A stretch of 64,000 nucleotides of DNA. Source: a virus. The stretch's first letter is position 1. Each line of letters opens with the position of its first letter. Shown here in pieces: positions 6,237-51,131 of the stretch. Both the position numbers and the translations under genes were made by a program. The DNA lies in IMG/VR virus record IMGVR_UViG_3300046170_000470; one strand, 5' to 3'. The notes under the pieces are model-generated. The model ran no database searches, was not told the origin of the DNA, and saw only the letters and a program-made list of their open reading frames with translations.

Positions 6237-8501
6237 ATGGCAGAAACATTAATTTCACCTGGCGTATTGGCTCGAGAAAACGACCAATCTTTTATTCAAG
6301 GCCAACCCGTAGAAGCAGGAGCTGCTATCCTAGGACCAGCTGCTAAAGGCCCTGTAGGCATTCCTACATTGGTAACTTCGTTTAGTGAATATCAAGCAGT
6401 TTTTGGTGGAGCCATCACAAGTGGCTCTTCAGAATATACTTACTTGACTTCAATTTCAGCTAATAACTATTTTTCCCAAGGAGGAGATTCGTTATTAGTA
6501 ACTAGAGTAAAATCTGGATCATTTAGTGGTGCAACTTCTCATAAAATATATAATAATGCTGAGAGTGGTGTAATAGATACTGATTCCATCTTAACTTTAT
6601 CCTCAGGAGGTGAAGGGGGTACCCCAGGTACCTATGAAGTTATAGCAACAGGATCATTAAACGGAACAGACGCTACATTAAGTATTACAACTGATACTAG
6701 TAATGGAAAATTATTAACTAGCTCTGCCTATATTGATAATATTGTTCAAAACACTACAGATGCTGTTGGTGGTTTTACCGGAAATTTTGGTCCTATCTCA
6801 AATATAACTTCCTCAAATGGTAGTGGAGCAGAATTTACTATAGATGTTACTTCTGGTGTAGTTGACGCAATTAATTGTACAACAACAGGTAGTGGGTACA
6901 TTGCTGGAGAAACTATTACTATACCAACAGAAGCTATAGGTTCTACGGATGCTTTAATCTTTACTGTTGAAGCCGCTAATTTATTTACAGAAGTTTCATC
7001 TACTACAATAACTAATGGTGGAAATAATTTTGCAGTTGGCGAAGAATTATCAGTAAATGGAGCCTCAGTAGGAAATTCGTCGGGATTAAGATACGCGGCA
7101 TTAGGAGCTGGAGATGTTATTAATGGAATTCCTTTTCAATTAACTACCCTATCTGAAGGTGAAATCATGAATAATTCAGGTTCAGAAGTAGGAAATGGAG
7201 CCTTAGCTAATGGGTCAAGTGATAATGTAAGATGGGAAATTGTTTCTAGCAATACAGGATCAGGAACATTTAGTTTATTAGTACGTAGAGGTAATGACAG
7301 CCATAGAAACAAATCAATTTTAGAATCTTGGACTAACTTATCGTTAGATCCAAAATCCCCAAATTATATAGAAAAAGTAATTGGTAATACAAGCTATTCA
7401 GTAGAAGTAGATGGTTTAGATTCATATGTACGTTCCCAAGGCGAATATAATAATAAAAGTAAATATGTAAGAGTATCTACTGTAAATTATAAAACCCCAG
7501 ACTATTTTGACAATGCGGGGAATGCAAAATCTGAATTTACTTCAAGTTTACCTTTAATTTCCTCAGGATCATTTACTGGTGCTGAAGGTAAATTATTTGG
7601 TTCTAACGCTAAATTTTACGATCAAATTGATAGTAATATCCAAGGTTTAGGACAATTAGATTATACATCCTCTATCCAATTATTAAATAATAAGGATGAT
7701 TATAAATTTAATTTACTAACAGCCCCAGGATTAAACCATTCAGATCATGCTACTGCAACTACTCTATTAGTCAGTACAGCAGATGCCCGTCAAGATTGTA
7801 TAGCTGTTATTGATTTAGATGGATATGGAACTAATATAGGTACTATGATTGATAATGCTACGTCATTTGATAGTTCATATGCTGCTACTTATTGGCCATG
7901 GTTACAAACAATTGATCCAAATACAGGACAAGTTGTTTGGGTACCTGCTTCAACTATGATTCCTGGAGTATATGCATTTACAGACGCTTCAAGTGACGCA
8001 TGGTTTGCACCTGCGGGATTAACAAGAGGAGCTCTTGGAAATGTAACAAAAGCAGAAAGAAAATTAACTACTACAAATAGAGATTCATTATACGAAGCTA
8101 ATATTAACCCAATTGCTACATTCCCAGGAACTGGAGTTGTTGTATTTGGTCAGAAAACACTACAGAAAAGAGCTAGTGCATTAGATCGTGTAAATGTGCG
8201 TAGATTATTAATTCAACTTAAGAGCTTTATTTCTCAAGTAGCTGATAATTTAGTATTTGAACAAAATACAATTGCTACAAGAAATATATTCTTAGGTCAA
8301 GTTAATCCGTACTTAGAATCAGTACAACAAAGACAAGGATTGTACGCGTTTAAAGTAGTAATGGATGATACTAATAATACTCCAGATGTAATTGATAGAA
8401 ATCAACTAGTAGGACAAATTTATTTACAACCAACTAGAACAGCAGAATTTATTATGCTAGATTTTAATGTATTACCAACAGGAGCAGTATTTCCTGAATA
8501 A
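6237..8501 (+). CDS. Contractile tail sheath protein (gp18-like) with internal repeat insertion
   Basis: SPGVLAREND N-terminus; WFAPAG..RG, LYEANINPI, GQKTLQ...SALDRVNVRRLL and FEQN motifs. Confidence 0.95.
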   Translation: MAETLISPGVLARENDQSFIQGQPVEAGAAILGPAAKGPVGIPTLVTSFSEYQAVFGGAITSGSSEYTYLTSISANNYFSQGGDSLLVTRVKSGSFSGATSHKIYNNAESGVIDTDSILTLSSGGEGGTPGTYEVIATGSLNGTDATLSITTDTSNGKLLTSSAYIDNIVQNTTDAVGGFTGNFGPISNITSSNGSGAEFTIDVTSGVVDAINCTTTGSGYIAGETITIPTEAIGSTDALIFTVEAANLFTEVSSTTITNGGNNFAVGEELSVNGASVGNSSGLRYAALGAGDVINGIPFQLTTLSEGEIMNNSGSEVGNGALANGSSDNVRWEIVSSNTGSGTFSLLVRRGNDSHRNKSILESWTNLSLDPKSPNYIEKVIGNTSYSVEVDGLDSYVRSQGEYNNKSKYVRVSTVNYKTPDYFDNAGNAKSEFTSSLPLISSGSFTGAEGKLFGSNAKFYDQIDSNIQGLGQLDYTSSIQLLNNKDDYKFNLLTAPGLNHSDHATATTLLVSTADARQDCIAVIDLDGYGTNIGTMIDNATSFDSSYAATYWPWLQTIDPNTGQVVWVPASTMIPGVYAFTDASSDAWFAPAGLTRGALGNVTKAERKLTTTNRDSLYEANINPIATFPGTGVVVFGQKTLQKRASALDRVNVRRLLIQLKSFISQVADNLVFEQNTIATRNIFLGQVNPYLESVQQRQGLYAFKVVMDDTNNTPDVIDRNQLVGQIYLQPTRTAEFIMLDFNVLPTGAVFPE

Positions 8502-8543
8502 AAACACAAAAATAGAATATTTATAATAAAATAAAAATATAAA

Positions 8544-9032
8544 ATGGCAGTATTAGATCCTAACGAAATATTTTACACGGCATTTGAGCCAAAACAAAAG
8601 AATAGATTTATTCTTTATATTGATGGATTTCCTTCGTACATTATGAAGGGTGTCGGAGCCGTAACTGTATCACAAGGAACAGTACCTTTAAATCATATTA
8701 ACGTTCAACGTTTTGTAAAAGGTAAAACAACTTGGGGTACTATCCAATTCACATTATTTGATCCTATTACTCCTTCTGGTGCTCAAGCAGTAATGGAATG
8801 GGTACGTTTACACCACGAATCAGTAACTGGTCGTGATGGTTATAGTGATTTCTACAAGAAAGACTTAACTGTAAATGTATTAGGACCTGTAGGGGATATT
8901 GTATCAGAATGGATTATAAAAGGTGCTTTAATTACAGAAGCTTCATTTGGAGATTTCAATTGGGATACTGAAAACGCTGCTCAAGAACTTACAATGACAG
9001 TTCAACCAGATTACTGTGTATTGAATTTCTAA
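8544..9032 (+). CDS. Tail tube protein (gp19-like)
   Basis: Follows sheath; KNRF, W.....G..GY...YKKD and W.IKGA motifs. Confidence 0.85.
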   Translation: MAVLDPNEIFYTAFEPKQKNRFILYIDGFPSYIMKGVGAVTVSQGTVPLNHINVQRFVKGKTTWGTIQFTLFDPITPSGAQAVMEWVRLHHESVTGRDGYSDFYKKDLTVNVLGPVGDIVSEWIIKGALITEASFGDFNWDTENAAQELTMTVQPDYCVLNF

Positions 9033-9064
9033 AAATTTACCCAACCCTCATACCTCAAAAAATT

Positions 9065-9090
9065 GCTTGGCTTCGGTCAAGCTTTTTTTT
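9065..9090 (+). terminator. Terminator after tail tube, overlapping a host-type promoter
   Basis: GCTTGGC-TTCG-GTCAAGC hairpin (C-UUCG-G loop) followed by T-tract. Confidence 0.85.
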
Positions 9091-9102
9091 ATATTGAACG
9101 TC

Positions 9103-9453
9103 AATACTAAAAGGAATAGTTCTTTGACATTTAAAAATAATAAGATATGGAAAATTTAGAATTTGTTTTAGGTGTCCTATCCACAGTAGGTGTATTCTTA
9201 GTAGGGTATGCTTCGATAGGAGTGTTTAAGGTGAAAACCAAAGTTAGAGATGTTAACCAATCTGTAGATAATGCTTATTTAGCTATGGATGAAATCGGTA
9301 AAGATTTTAATAATAATATTAATGATTTACGATTAGATTACCAAAATCAAATTGATGAAATTTATAGGCAAATAGATTCAAGATTTGATAAATTTGAAAA
9401 TAAAATAAATAAATAATTACTAACCCGTTTTAAGAACTTTCCTTTTTAGTATT
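9103..9453. repeat. Imperfect 22-nt inverted repeat (9103-9124 / 9432-9453) enclosing ORF 9147-9416
   Basis: AATACTAAAAGGAATAGTTCTT versus reverse complement of the right arm, AATACTAAAAAGGAAAGTTCTT. Confidence 0.8.
9147..9416 (+). CDS. Small membrane protein (N-terminal TM helix plus coiled coil)
   Basis: Hydrophobic residues ~5-27 followed by a heptad-rich polar helix. Confidence 0.75.
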   Translation: MENLEFVLGVLSTVGVFLVGYASIGVFKVKTKVRDVNQSVDNAYLAMDEIGKDFNNNINDLRLDYQNQIDEIYRQIDSRFDKFENKINK

Positions 9454-9489
9454 TATTAACGATAAAAAAGTTTTAATTAAATAAAGATT

Positions 9490-10215
9490 ATGGCCGAATT
9501 TAAATTCCCAACCGAAGAAGTTGAGTTACCATCTAAAGGATTAGTTTATCCTGAAGATAATCCCCTTTCAAGCGGTAAAGTAGAAATTAAATATATGACT
9601 GCTAAGGAAGAAGATATACTTTCAAACCAATCATACATCCAAAAAGGTACAGTATTAGACAAATTATTAGAATCTGTTGTTGTATCTTCTGATGTTAAAA
9701 TAAAAGATTTAATTATTGGAGATAAAAATGCATTATTAATTGCTACTCGTATTCTAGGGTATGGAAAAGAATATAAGTTTAATTATGGTAAAGAATTAAG
9801 AACTGTTGATTTAACTGAGATAGAAAATAAAGAATTTGATACCAACTTAATTAATAAAGGAGAAAATTCATTCCCTTTTGAATTGCCCCATAGTGGTAAT
9901 AATATAACTTTTAGAATATTAACAGGTCATGAAGAATCTAAAATTGAAAAAGAATTAGCAGGCCTTAAAAAAATTAATAAAGAACCTTCAGAATTAACTA
10001 CTAGATTAAAATATATTATTACATCAGTAGGTGGAGATAATGATTCTAAAACAATTAGAGAATTTGTTGATAATTATTTATTAGCAAGAGATTCTAGATC
10101 TTTAAGAGAATATATTAGACAAGTTCAACCTGATGTTAATCTTAACTACCAGTTTGAAGATGGAGAGGAGGTAGTTATCCCAATAGGGATAGGCTTTTTT
10201 TGGCCTGACTTCTGA
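9490..10215 (+). CDS. Tail/baseplate assembly chaperone (gp26/gp51-like)
   Basis: LPSKG..Y, MTAKEEDIL, GDKNALLIATRILGYG and terminal FFWP; lies between tube and tape measure genes. Confidence 0.7.
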   Translation: MAEFKFPTEEVELPSKGLVYPEDNPLSSGKVEIKYMTAKEEDILSNQSYIQKGTVLDKLLESVVVSSDVKIKDLIIGDKNALLIATRILGYGKEYKFNYGKELRTVDLTEIENKEFDTNLINKGENSFPFELPHSGNNITFRILTGHEESKIEKELAGLKKINKEPSELTTRLKYIITSVGGDNDSKTIREFVDNYLLARDSRSLREYIRQVQPDVNLNYQFEDGEEVVIPIGIGFFWPDF

Positions 10216-10520: not shown

Positions 10521-12908
10521 ATGGATGAAATTAATAAGTTAAATGAGGACATTGCCAAATTAAGAAGGCAATTAGGGCAAAGCCCTATTAAACTTTTTCA
10601 AGAAAATGAAATTGAAGAAGCTAAGTTAGCTTTATCTGGATTAAAAGCAGAAATTAAGGAAATCCAAAATGATGCTGTAAATCTAGCAGGTGCATTTCGC
10701 GAAACTGTTAATGAAATAAGAAATCAAGGTAGTGCATTAAAAGATAGCACTAAAACTCTTAGGGGATTACAAAGTATATCTCAAAAAATCAAATATGATC
10801 AAGAAGGTATAGGTAAACTTTCCATAAAAGAATTACAAACACTAAAAAAACAAGCAGAACAAAGAAAATCTGACCTTAAAGAAAATTTAGATCAACTTAC
10901 TAGAAGAAGACAAGAATTAGAGTCTGGAATAAGCTTAAATAAAAAGGCAACAACTGAATTAAAAAGTATAAGAGCCGCAGAAGCATCTATTAAAAATGAA
11001 TTAGAAGGCACAATTGAGGGAAGAAAAAAAGAATTAGGATTAGTAGATAGTCTTAATATTGCTATTGATGAAAGGATAGAAAGAGAAAAAAATATCCAAA
11101 ATAGTCTAGGAATTTCAGGTGGAATTCTTAAGAGCATTGAGGGAGCCATGAATAAAATAGGTCTTGGTGCTTTATCTCAAGCTATAGGATTTAATGATAT
11201 AAATAAAGAACTTCAAGAATACGCTGAAGAATTAGAAGATTCAGAAGAAGGACTTGATGCGAACACAAAACAGTCTTTAGTACTAGGTAAAGGGTTTGAA
11301 CTTGTTGGAGATAAAGTTAAAAAAGCTTTAAGTGATCCTATGGTTGTTATAGCTATTGGATTAAAGGCTATAGGTGCTTTAACTTCTGCACTTTCAAAAG
11401 GATTTGCTAGAAGCCAAGAAAATACGGGGGCATTAGCTAAAAACTTAAATATATCTAATAAAGAAGCAATGCAATTAAGTAGAGGGATGTCTGCTGCTTC
11501 TTTTGGTTCAGATGCTTTATTTTTATCAAGTAAAGGATTAACAGAAACCCTAGTTGAAATTAATAAAGAATTAGGAACAAGTATACAATTTTCAACCCAA
11601 CAATTAGCTACCTTTACTAAACTAAGAGAAACAGCTGGATTGACTAATGAAGAGTTAATGGGTATTCAAAAACTTTCTCTTGCTAATGGTCAATCTTTTG
11701 ATGCTAATGCTGATAGTTTATTAAATCAAGTTTCAGCTTTAAATAGAGCTAGTGGAATTTATATAAACGAAAAACAAGTATTAAAAGAAATCTCATCCCT
11801 TTCAGCTGCTACTCAATTATCATTAGGTAAAAATCCAAAAGCATTAGCTGAAGCTGTTACTGTAGCTAAAGCTTTAGGTATGGAAATGTCTAAAGTTGAA
11901 AGCATTGCTGATAGTTTATTAGATTTTGAATCATCAATTAGTAATGAATTACAAGCAGAATTATTAATTGGTAGAGATATTAATTTAGAAAAAGCAAGAC
12001 AAGCTGCCTTAAATAATGATTTGGCTACTTTAGCTAAAGAAATAGCGGATCAAGCTGGAACTGCTGCTGAATTTTCTCAAATGAACAGAATCCAACAAGA
12101 TGCTATTGCTAACTCTGTTGGAATGGGTAGAGAGGAATTAGCTCAAACTTTATTTGTACAAGAACAATTAGCAGGAGCTAGTGGAGAAGAAGCAGAAAGA
12201 AGACAAAAAGTATTAGATGCTAGAATAGAAGAAGTTGGATTGGCACAAGCCCAAAGGGAATTAGAAGAGGGAGGTTTAGAAAATATGTTAAATCAAGCCA
12301 CTGCTACAGAAAAAATGCAAGCTTCTCTAGGGAAAATTAATGAATTATTTACAGCTTTAGGAGCAATGTTTGCACCTATAGTAGATATGTTTGCTAGTAT
12401 TGCTGGGTTTATAGCAGAATCTCGAACTGCTATGGTACTTTTTAGTGCAGCTATTGGAGCTGCAGTTACAGTATTAGGTGCTTTAGCCATAAAATCATTA
12501 ATTGCTGCTGCTAGTCAAATTATGTTTTCTTTTTCCCAACTTCCTTTCGGTATAGGTATTCCACTAGGTCTTGCTGCTATTGGAGCTTTAGGGGGAGTAA
12601 TATCAAGTCTAACTGCAACATCAAAAGCAGATGATATCCTTTCAGAAGGAGGAAGTGGAAGTGGTTACGGTAAAAGAATGTTATTAGCCCCTGAAGGTGC
12701 TTTTGCTCTAAATAATAAAGATACTGTTATAGCAGGAACTAATTTATTTAGAGGAGATGATGTTATATCAGCAGGAGCGGGACAAGTTAATGTATCCTCA
12801 CAAGGCAATAAAACAGGTGAAAAAACTAATATGTTATTAGAAAAATTAATTGGTCAAAATGCTAAAAAACCAGAAATATCTCCTGTGGGTTTATACGAAA
12901 TTGCTTAA
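10521..12908 (+). CDS. Tape measure protein
   Basis: 795 aa, helical and Ala/Leu/Glu-rich, with a hydrophobic C-terminal region; follows the chaperone. Confidence 0.8.
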   Translation: MDEINKLNEDIAKLRRQLGQSPIKLFQENEIEEAKLALSGLKAEIKEIQNDAVNLAGAFRETVNEIRNQGSALKDSTKTLRGLQSISQKIKYDQEGIGKLSIKELQTLKKQAEQRKSDLKENLDQLTRRRQELESGISLNKKATTELKSIRAAEASIKNELEGTIEGRKKELGLVDSLNIAIDERIEREKNIQNSLGISGGILKSIEGAMNKIGLGALSQAIGFNDINKELQEYAEELEDSEEGLDANTKQSLVLGKGFELVGDKVKKALSDPMVVIAIGLKAIGALTSALSKGFARSQENTGALAKNLNISNKEAMQLSRGMSAASFGSDALFLSSKGLTETLVEINKELGTSIQFSTQQLATFTKLRETAGLTNEELMGIQKLSLANGQSFDANADSLLNQVSALNRASGIYINEKQVLKEISSLSAATQLSLGKNPKALAEAVTVAKALGMEMSKVESIADSLLDFESSISNELQAELLIGRDINLEKARQAALNNDLATLAKEIADQAGTAAEFSQMNRIQQDAIANSVGMGREELAQTLFVQEQLAGASGEEAERRQKVLDARIEEVGLAQAQRELEEGGLENMLNQATATEKMQASLGKINELFTALGAMFAPIVDMFASIAGFIAESRTAMVLFSAAIGAAVTVLGALAIKSLIAAASQIMFSFSQLPFGIGIPLGLAAIGALGGVISSLTATSKADDILSEGGSGSGYGKRMLLAPEGAFALNNKDTVIAGTNLFRGDDVISAGAGQVNVSSQGNKTGEKTNMLLEKLIGQNAKKPEISPVGLYEIA

Positions 12909-19315: not shown

Positions 19316-20593
19316 ATGTACTGGCTTGTAGAAAACGAGGAGCAGTTAAATGTTTTAATAAATAGTGGTTATAAAGAAGCTTTCATTGAGGTAATACCTT
19401 ATAATGACACAATACACCCCGTACAAAACCACGTTAGTTTAGTGTATATTAGACCGATTGAAGCGAGTAAAGGCTTTATGATATGCGTTACCCATAGTGA
19501 AGCTTTAAATGCGTTAAACACGCGTATAATCGATTTACTAAACAAATTTGATAAAATATATTGTAGGGATAAAAAACAAACATTACATTATTTTCCAATT
19601 AAAGCTCTTTATGACATAACACCACCCCCTCATACGTATATACGACCTACAACACAAACACATGATTTATACTATCGTGAACACAAAGATAATCCGGAGT
19701 TAAACTTAATTATACCGATTGTTAAACATTATGAATTGTGTGAAACGATTTTTAGAGATCTAAAAGCGAATATTAACATAGAAAAAACTAAATATGATGA
19801 ATTCTTTAACAGTAGAGTATCCGTGGTATTCAACGCCATCGAGAGAAGTGGCATACGTATACACAATGACACCTTCAGTGAATACTTCCACGCAGTTGAC
19901 GGTGAATACGTCAACACTCAGTTCAACTTAAAAACAACTACTACAAGACCTAGTAATAAATTTAAAAATGTAAATTATGCCGCACTCAACAAAGAAAACG
20001 GATGTAGAAAGAGTTTTATTCCTCGTAATAGCAAACTTGTGGAGATTGATATTTCTGCTTACCACCCTAGTTTGGCTGCTCGTCTCATTGATTATAGCTT
20101 TACCACTAGTGATATTCACGCTCATTTTGCTACCCTATATAATGTGGATTATAAAAAAGCGAAAGAGCTTACTTTTAAACAGCTTTATGGCGGAGTTTTT
20201 AAACAATATAAAGAACTCGAATTTTTTCAAAAAATAGAAAAATACGTAGGAGAGAACTGGAATAAATTCCAAAGCGACGGGTTTATAGAATGTCCGGTTT
20301 CTGGGTATGTTTATAAAAAAGAAAACTTGGGGGAGATGAATCCACAAAAGTTGTTTAATTATGTGTTACAAAATTTAGAAACATCCATGAATGTGTTGGT
20401 TTTGTGGGATATATTTCGTATATTACGGGGATACAAAACGAAGCTAGTGCTATATACTTATGATTCGTTTTTATTTGATTGGGATGAAGGAGAAACAGAA
20501 TTATTAGAGAAAATAAGAGATATTTTCAAAAAATATAAGCTAAATATTAAAGAAATAGAAGGTTATGATTACAACTTTGGAGAAACCGCTTAA
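19316..20593 (+). CDS. Compact family-A DNA polymerase-like protein
   Basis: TTTTRPS, motif A EIDISAYHP, motif B KAKELTFKQLYG, motif C LYTYDSFLFD. Confidence 0.8.
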   Translation: MYWLVENEEQLNVLINSGYKEAFIEVIPYNDTIHPVQNHVSLVYIRPIEASKGFMICVTHSEALNALNTRIIDLLNKFDKIYCRDKKQTLHYFPIKALYDITPPPHTYIRPTTQTHDLYYREHKDNPELNLIIPIVKHYELCETIFRDLKANINIEKTKYDEFFNSRVSVVFNAIERSGIRIHNDTFSEYFHAVDGEYVNTQFNLKTTTTRPSNKFKNVNYAALNKENGCRKSFIPRNSKLVEIDISAYHPSLAARLIDYSFTTSDIHAHFATLYNVDYKKAKELTFKQLYGGVFKQYKELEFFQKIEKYVGENWNKFQSDGFIECPVSGYVYKKENLGEMNPQKLFNYVLQNLETSMNVLVLWDIFRILRGYKTKLVLYTYDSFLFDWDEGETELLEKIRDIFKKYKLNIKEIEGYDYNFGETA

Positions 20594-21032
20594 TACGTAT
20601 AACGCGAAATACGACGTTATAACTAACATTCAAAATTTAAGCGACTTGAATAATAAATTATTTTGTACCTTCACCGATTTAGAGGGTCTAGATGCACTTA
20701 TAGAAAATATTACATCAAAATATAATATTATATATAACAAGCTTTTTGTACTAGAGATAGTAGGAAAAGATGAATATGTAGTAACATATAATGTTGAACA
20801 GGCTAACGTACATTCAATTCCAGAAAATACCATTTTAGTACATCGTAAAAAGGAATCTAACACCTTATATACTATTAATGCTTTAAATGAGTTAATTAAA
20901 AAATTAAATGGTGGCGTCGTAGACACCAGATATAGAGTTGATTGGCAGCATTATAGAAATTGTGTTTTACTTACTCAACACAATGAATTAAATCAACTTA
21001 ATACAAAAATTTACAAAATTATTGAACTATAG
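20565..21032 (+). CDS. Hypothetical protein
   Basis: ORF with NKLFCTF and VHRKKESNTLYTINALN; start uncertain. Confidence 0.6.
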   Translation: MITTLEKPLNTYNAKYDVITNIQNLSDLNNKLFCTFTDLEGLDALIENITSKYNIIYNKLFVLEIVGKDEYVVTYNVEQANVHSIPENTILVHRKKESNTLYTINALNELIKKLNGGVVDTRYRVDWQHYRNCVLLTQHNELNQLNTKIYKIIEL

Positions 21033-50548: not shown

Positions 50549-50644
50549 TATATGTATAATAGAACATAATATTGTAGAGCTAGGGCATGCTGTTATGTTT
50601 AAATTAAATTAACCGAGAGCTACGGCCTCACAAAACTAAATGAT

Positions 50645-51061
50645 ATGAGTACATTATTCAATGAACGTACACCGTTCGACTTACTATTCCGAAACTTTTT
50701 TAAAGCAGACGGATCTTTTCAACCAACCACGTTTGACAACAAACAACCACACCCACTAGATATTTTTTATGACGAAGAAGGGCTTCACTTTGAGATTGCC
50801 TGTACTGGTCTAACTAAAAAAGACATTCAACTAGAAATAGATGGGGATCTTTTAAAAATTATCTATGATAAACCAAAAGAAGAAGAAGATTATTCTGGCT
50901 ATATCTATAAGGGATTAGCTAAACGATCTTTTAACCTAGGTTATAAAGTAGCAGCTAAATTTGAACTTGAAAGTTTATCAGCTGAAATGAAGGATGGCTT
51001 ACTTCATATTTTTATTCCAATTGCCGAATCTAAAAAGCCTAAAACCATTAAAATTAAGTAA
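50645..51061 (+). CDS. Small heat-shock protein Hsp20
   Basis: EIACTGL.K.DI, YKGLAKRSF and AEMKDGLL...PKTIKIK motifs. Confidence 0.9.
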   Translation: MSTLFNERTPFDLLFRNFFKADGSFQPTTFDNKQPHPLDIFYDEEGLHFEIACTGLTKKDIQLEIDGDLLKIIYDKPKEEEDYSGYIYKGLAKRSFNLGYKVAAKFELESLSAEMKDGLLHIFIPIAESKKPKTIKIK

Positions 51062-51131
51062 TAAGTTTTATTAAAAAAGCGTGTCCTAGCGCAATATTAT
51101 TCGTATATTCACGTCTAAATAAATAAGTTAT

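Follow-up and report, generated by a model that had tools for sequence, protein, structure and literature searches.

A small phage gene enclosed by a predicted, covarying 5′-3′ RNA helix with the boxA of Bacteroidota rRNA operons

The window, by which we mean the whole 64-kb stretch of DNA analysed here, belongs to an uncultured marine phage of Bacteroidota, a large myovirus of 31% G+C with every gene on the + strand. Its nearest cultured relatives, judged from the tube protein, are Microcystis phage Mel-JY01 and Flavobacterium phage vB_FspM_immuto (immuto below), at ∼58-61% identity. A late-promoter-like 13-mer, TAATATTTATAAC, precedes structural gene starts by 10-30 nt, always on the + strand, and within the tail module, between the genes for the tube and for a hub-like protein, there is a short ORF for an 89-aa protein (Table 1), which together with its flanking signals we call the cassette. 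Searches of the window with Rfam (at gathering thresholds) and with ARAGORN gave no matches. Metatranscriptome contigs (Logan, small word shares) cover 9176-9459, one of them bridging 9317-9644, at a depth of ∼2-4, and as contigs they give neither ends, nor strand, nor level; for the sheath and tube genes (7600-9050) the summed depth of marine metatranscriptome contigs is much greater than for the cassette, these again being contigs only and not a measure of expression.

Table 1. Features of the cassette and its neighbourhood in the window, the second clamped gene, and settings and boxA sites in related phages
Feature	Position or loci	Strand	Remarks
Late motif TAATATTTATAAC	1119, 6197, 12911; 10496; 8515	+	exact; 1 mismatch; 2 mismatches
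Sheath gene	6237-8501	+	
Tube gene	8544-9032	+	
Tail-tube intrinsic terminator	9065-9090	+	hairpin 9065-9082 with 7-bp G+C stem and TTCG loop; T8 run to 9090
Predicted host-type cassette promoter	9067-9095	+	TTGGCT 9067-9072, 17 nt, TATATT 9090-9095; overlies terminator; 9/12 matches
Arm 1, 5′ helix strand	9103-9124	+	starts 7 nt after the −10 hexamer
boxA	9119-9130	+	GTTCTTTGACAT; identical to Bacteroidota rrn spacer boxA core; first 6 nt within the helix
A/U-rich leader	9125-9146	+	no Shine-Dalgarno; largely unpaired in MFE fold, partly paired in centroid
89-aa ORF	9147-9416	+	N-terminal membrane helix, Lys-rich stretch, coiled coil, invariant Y..DSRFDKFE motif
Arm 2, 3′ helix strand	9432-9453	+	starts 15 nt after the stop codon
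Degenerate late-promoter motif for hub-like gene	9447-9459	+	overlaps outer end of the 3′ strand
Hub-like gene	9490-10215	+	
Tape measure gene	10521-12908	+	
Second clamp, 5′ arm	50566-50591		5 nt after TATAAT
Small heat-shock protein ORF	50645-51061		within clamped region 50555-51101
Second clamp, 3′ arm	51078-51100		just before promoter-like TATATT
Setting: tube-hub junction	window, L001-L055 (incl. L041)		
Setting: tRNA arrays	L056-L059, L062, L066-L072, L075, L076, cultured phage immuto (gp239)		tRNAs on the same strand
Setting: after DNA polymerase gene	L073/L074		own TTGGCT-17-TATATT promoter
Setting: between clamp-loader subunit genes	L077-L080		no boxA
tRNA-operon boxA sites	L070 3440-3505; L076 2420-2475; L068 3395-3440; L067 and L071 near 3480		

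For the protein, AlphaFold gives one continuous helix (pLDDT 86), and the order of the membrane segment and the Lys/Arg residues that follow it suggests, by the positive-inside rule, an N-out, C-in topology. Family searches (Pfam, PHROGs, Atlas) left only weak leads: coiled-coil families, phrog_1009, an Rz-like spanin and a Mu releasin-like Atlas neighbour (0.87). That the protein acts in lysis timing, or else in exclusion, is a guess on our part. The comparison described below draws on 112 confirmed IMG/VR relatives of the ORF, of which 80 were retained; they are 33-100% identical to it and the homologous proteins are 89-142 aa long. The longest size is found at L076 (3001-3429, 142 aa), where the C-terminal coiled-coil segment is duplicated and the DSRFDKFE motif occurs twice. 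Searching cultured phages with the region or the ORF (megablast, tblastn) gave no match; the cultured homologue, gp239 of immuto, came up only by profile search, and makes immuto and Flavobacterium sp. LMO8 a cultured phage-host pair with the cassette. In that genome (NC_055915, 17500-23500) the cassette is at ∼20332-20700; gp239 is annotated only as hypothetical and comes after a tRNA annotated as Cys, and the endolysin gene, gp236, is found 1.4 kb downstream of it.

The two arms that flank the ORF, whose coordinates, like all others given in the sequence-only reading of this DNA, proved exact, make 21 Watson-Crick pairs interrupted by two bulges of one base each, and are the longest inverted repeat within 2.5 kb anywhere in the window. 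Ranked by the stability of the duplex between the two flanks of each of 88 ORFs, the cassette comes second with −29.2 kcal/mol (mean −14.7, s.d. 5.1, i.e. ∼2.8 s.d. below the mean). The terminal helix is present in both the MFE and the centroid folds of 9103-9453. A wider complementarity of 38 nt (9087-9124 with 9432-9469, 74%) was considered as a structure and discarded: its outer part is a T-run facing an A-run and displays no covariation.

Evidence that the helix exists as RNA comes from the relatives. When the 70 nt before the ATG were searched against the 60 nt after the stop codon, each of the 56 non-identical loci with enough flank gave a helix of the same kind as its best duplex, with 17-25 nt between the end of the 5′ strand and the ATG, and the 3′ strand beginning 2-12 nt past the stop. 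The outer arm sequences are unrelated from lineage to lineage. For 12 lineages with differing arms, the mean energy was −26.8 kcal/mol for cognate pairs of arms against −12.5 kcal/mol for non-cognate ones (permutation p < 5×10−5, 0 of 20 000 being as good). In the close lineage, aligned with MAFFT, 91% of the cells are paired, four pairs have changed on both sides and the covariation score exceeds that of 499 of 500 shuffles; one compensatory pair change in this lineage falls within the late-promoter motif. Compensatory change in both arms of related phages was the check set beforehand, and the arms do covary as a pair, in distant homologues also. The mismatches tell the same story: in DNA-level alignments scoring all mismatches alike, the transition mismatches divide into 17 G.U and 1 A.C on the + strand (binomial p = 7×10−5, a generous value since some are inherited), an asymmetry that points to RNA transcribed from the + strand, not to a cruciform or to terminal inverted repeats. 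We take these comparisons to show that the helix is conserved as RNA structure and accompanies the 89-aa ORF wherever the latter is located.

The ORF and its helix are found together in several settings (Table 1). At the loci with an independent promoter, the 5′ strand starts 5-7 nt past the −10 hexamer (∼7 nt in the window, L022, L041, L060 and L073); at those preceded by a tRNA, only 2-3 nt separate it from the 3′ end of that tRNA. The five loci L060, L061 and L063-L065 have no upstream tRNA, and there the cassette has its own promoter and the tRNAs are downstream. What follows the 3′ strand is either a strong terminator, or the next tRNA (4 nt on in L068), or the next promoter. This register of the strands with promoters, tRNAs and terminators indicates that the sequences joined by the helix should be the extreme ends of the message. 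An independent unit inside the tail module had been proposed from the window alone, and this holds insofar as the cassette has its own predicted promoter and the tube-hub junction is uninterrupted in cultured immuto and Mel-JY01, but not as regards a terminator, since the window has none of its own for it. The cassette is probably self-contained and, judged from its distribution, portable, the helix having moved along with the ORF. Two further observations concern the tRNA arrays. Downstream of arrays that hold the cassette there are tmRNA genes (tag VDSKVAVA) in L056 (5245-5653), L059 (5106-5514), L065 (5724-6125) and L066 (5755-6141). And in L069/L070 (2794-2965), ∼170 nt separate a tRNA-Thr from the cassette, with a T-arm-like GGTTCGAATCC segment at their end; ARAGORN may have missed an unusual tRNA here, or one with an intron.

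Bacteroidota have unusual promoters and translation signals. The claim that a host-type promoter is superimposed on the tube terminator is borne out, at the level of a predicted promoter, by the two hexamers at their 17-nt spacing over the terminator; the region also fits the Bacteroidota-type CTTG-N20-TATATTGA. Among relatives in the tube context both TTGGCT and TATATT are invariant and the opposite half of the hairpin varies, the hairpin itself being retained with compensatory changes. Arm 1 does begin where transcription would be expected to start. Of the late motif said to lie under arm 2, the window has only a copy with three mismatches to TAATATTTATAAC, which is chance level here, but close relatives (e.g. 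L022) have a perfect one in that place. There is no terminator after the 3′ strand in the window, so that the 3′ end of the message would be undefined unless the RNA is processed. We also considered TTGACA, within boxA, as the −35 element of a promoter for the 89-aa ORF, and rejected it: counted 7 nt from the −10 that goes with it, transcription would begin within the coding region, and the distance to the ATG is not constant (17-25 nt).

The inner end of the 5′ strand needs separate consideration. The sequence GTTCTTTGACA (9119-9129) holds the only exact GTTCTTTGA in the 64 kb. Among relatives the inner 5′ strand keeps GTTCTTTGA(C/T), also given as an invariant core GTTCTTTGA(CAT), while the outer arms vary; as this core pairs with the 3′ strand via a conserved G.U, the 5′ sequence must be constrained in its own right. 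A resemblance to the rrn boxA had been noted for this site, and the host survey turns it into sequence-level identity with the boxA of Bacteroidota rrn operons. Among 120 Bacteroidota 16S loci fetched by a motif-blind 16S pattern, the exact 9-mer occurs upstream of the 16S anchor in 40/101 genomes (78/101 with ≤1 mismatch), at a distance of 80-310 nt, mostly 80-200 nt; GTTCTTTGA or a one-base variant is present in 68/100 16S leaders and 42/47 16S-23S spacers. The hosts gave no reverse-complement match, and there was no match within 16S. The usual host spacer copy reads GTTC(T/A)TTGACATATTG, to be compared with GTTCTTTGACAT in the window. In hosts, the outer base of the 23S leader-trailer helix is made up of the 3′ half of boxA, and the boxA of the 16S leader lies directly next to its stalk. 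Judged by its letters, the cassette core is the rrn boxA of Bacteroidota. In the 6-kb loci around the cassette of related phages the 9-mer is almost exclusively forward (one reverse match). In four whole phage records it is also found on the contig strand opposite the cassette, in numbers not clearly above a reversed-pattern control, so that the strand bias holds for the neighbourhood of the cassette and not for whole genomes. A search of the full-text literature for the motif string returned only unrelated primers and siRNAs.

The helix is not tied to boxA, nor is it confined to one gene. In the L077-L080 lineage the helix is retained and boxA is absent. In the window itself the best flank duplex of all, at −32.6 kcal/mol, encloses a small heat-shock protein gene; its arms differ in relatives L305, L357, L360 and L365 and yet still pair and covary, and this clamp, too, has no boxA. 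It follows from both cases that boxA is not needed for the clamp.

Leader-trailer helices bearing a boxA are textbook features of rRNA operons. The reading that we favour, and regard as rather probable, is that the cassette mRNA is a portable, rRNA-style message clamped at its ends, with the architecture of a pre-rRNA and an rrn boxA core. Transcription would start at the host-type promoter over the tube terminator, so that the first bases made would be the 5′ strand of the helix, with the host rrn boxA at its inner end; ∼330 nt later, past the stop codon, the 3′ strand would emerge and pair with it. The helix would then close the whole ORF in a loop, in which the A/U-rich start region would stay free for ribosomes. 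The paired 5′ end, and the 3′ end once terminated or tRNA-processed, would protect and define the message, and such protection would make expression of the cassette independent of its neighbours, be they tail genes, replication genes or tRNAs. As long as it is single-stranded, boxA could load NusB/S10 and so keep the 5′ strand close to the polymerase while the 3′ strand is still to come; the loaded NusB/S10 could suppress Rho termination, as proposed for rrn operons, and formation of the helix would subsequently hide boxA. Host RNase III may, in addition, cut the helix as it does in rRNA stalks. End protection, RNase III processing and Nus loading are thus what we infer the helix to do. Such a tether has been proposed for rrn operons, where boxA bound by NusB would keep the leader strand with the polymerase up to the point at which the trailer comes out (PMC10250234). 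The original suggestion of an mRNA that mimics an rRNA processing stalk has strong comparative support: the arms covary, boxA is identical to the host's, which likewise overlaps a leader-trailer helix, and many relatives have the cassette in tRNA arrays. Nothing points to a circular RNA.

A bolder form of this proposal is more tentative, and we would call it possible but doubtful. It says that Nus factors on boxA hold the 5′ strand at the polymerase up to the emergence of the 3′ strand, that closure of the helix then expels the factors and conceals boxA, and that the resulting closed, rRNA-like particle, trimmed by the enzymes of rRNA processing, escapes mRNA decay, in phages of Bacteroidota as well as in relatives whose hosts use Shine-Dalgarno sequences. 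Were the Nus-loading reading true, the cassette would be a plug-in module, and a gene could be inserted anywhere, even in tRNA arrays or among coupled core genes, leaving the neighbours undisturbed.

Among the alternatives, the first to be weighed is a pure RNase III stalk, where the helix would serve mainly for cutting, the small mRNA being excised from read-through late or tRNA precursors like 16S and 23S from theirs, and end protection would be secondary. The helix measures 21 bp in the window, several relatives (among them L072/L073) have 23-26 bp, and in E. coli a stalk helix of more than ∼17 bp is required (PMC10250234). In the range of 21-26 bp, cleavage by RNase III is plausible; it is doubtful for the 15-16 bp of the L056 and L077 lineages, which speak against cutting as the main function. 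As to the enzyme itself, it is present in Bacteroides thetaiotaomicron, our sole Bacteroidota control genome, and no gene for it was found in five related phage records. The analogy with host stalks fits (PMC10250234), and polycistronic or tRNA settings do call for excision, but 5′ excision is needless where the strand begins at the transcript start, and RNase P together with tRNA 3′ processing would free the tRNA-flanked copies anyway. We consider this account unlikely, though not negligible.

Another possibility is that boxA is there for the benefit of the genes downstream, as an antitermination loader that would let polymerase from the host-type promoter read through to the genes for hub, chaperone and tape measure, or to the tRNAs that come next, with the helix as an off-switch or incidental. 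The motif is an exact rrn boxA, the window lacks a terminator past the 3′ strand, and the same motif heads tRNA operons in related phages: several copies lie there 6-7 nt after a sigma70-like −10 hexamer, and one such leader is almost identical over ∼20 nt to a host 16S-23S spacer boxA. Many relatives, however, have a strong terminator directly past the 3′ strand, the downstream genes have their own late promoters, and the feature common to all is the helix and not boxA, as the L077 lineage illustrates; this explanation appears quite improbable to us. Still less probable is a feature of the DNA, i.e. that the arms serve a mobile element as its terminal inverted repeats or as recombination sites and have no role as RNA. 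The cassette has indeed moved, as it occupies four unrelated genomic positions, but what is conserved between the arms is pairing and not sequence, the mismatches have the strand-asymmetric 17:1 excess of G.U, the strands keep register with transcript starts and tRNA ends, and no transposase or nuclease accompanies them.

The weakest of the alternatives, which we give hardly any chance, is the hok-like type I toxin mRNA that had been suggested from the window, in which 5′-3′ pairing, like the fbi pairing of hok/Sok, would keep the mRNA of a small membrane protein inert until 3′ trimming refolds it: three of the four defining features fail, since the MFE fold leaves most of the start region (9125-9146) unpaired and does not sequester it, a consensus scan of 9100-9460 (and only a scan of that kind) found no minus-strand promoter-like site for an antisense RNA, there is no overlapping mok-type frame, and the protein is larger (89-142 aa), with a conserved soluble motif and a long soluble helix, and is retained as a core-like gene in large myoviruses of lytic type. 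An exclusion or lysis role for the 89-aa protein itself is possible.

How does the cassette, as we read it, compare with known systems? With rrn stalks it shares the boxA of the host phylum, which overlaps one strand of a long-range helix enclosing the cargo, the maintenance of that helix by covariation and, in many relatives, the immediate vicinity of tRNA genes. It differs in that the cargo is a translated ORF for 89 aa, of ∼0.3 kb, and not an rRNA, and has no Rfam match, so that the cassette is stalk-like without being a member of the rRNA stalks; moreover, boxA is at the inner end of the 5′ strand in the phage and at the outer end in the host. Lambdoid nut sites likewise put a host-type boxA on phage transcripts, but no boxB hairpin or N-like protein was seen here (neither boxB nor boxC was identified in the cassette) and boxA is embedded in the helix that encloses the cargo. 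As to mRNAs, end-to-end pairing is, to our knowledge, established in just a handful of bacterial genes. An example is provided by the hbs mRNA of B. subtilis, whose extreme 5′ end pairs with the 3′ UTR, an interaction proposed to control the access of ribonucleases (PMC5737220); other 3′UTR-5′UTR pairings have been reviewed (PMC7821165). These concern single chromosomal genes and have no boxA, whereas in the phage the clamp belongs to a conserved, mobile module that bears rRNA signals, and it surrounds at least two different genes.

From the point of view of genome organization, the cassette recalls the PeSL cassettes of T4-type phages, in which a terminator hairpin and early-promoter motif bound a small accessory ORF between core genes, and which have also changed positions (PMC2839356, PMC4122927). 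The border feature, a terminator hairpin fused to an early promoter, is present at 9065-9095. However, PeSLs act as direct repeats in DNA recombination, and here we have inverted arms that covary as an RNA helix across the ORF; as for a PeSL-type direct repeat, the window has the late motif downstream instead, and in L041 a TTCTTCGTATATT-type motif is found on both sides. As an independent unit between conserved neighbours that are contiguous in immuto and Mel-JY01, and with a predicted promoter of its own, the cassette also resembles a moron.

A limited search of the literature found no description of a protein-coding mRNA enclosed by a boxA-bearing helix. The cassette combines an rRNA-type helix and boxA on a translated phage message, and this combination has been conserved through deep divergence and in at least four genomic settings. 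If the mechanism that we propose is true, the machinery of rRNA transcription and folding would be recruitable for mRNA, and the cassette would provide a natural, compact insulator or stabiliser module for gene expression in Bacteroidota.
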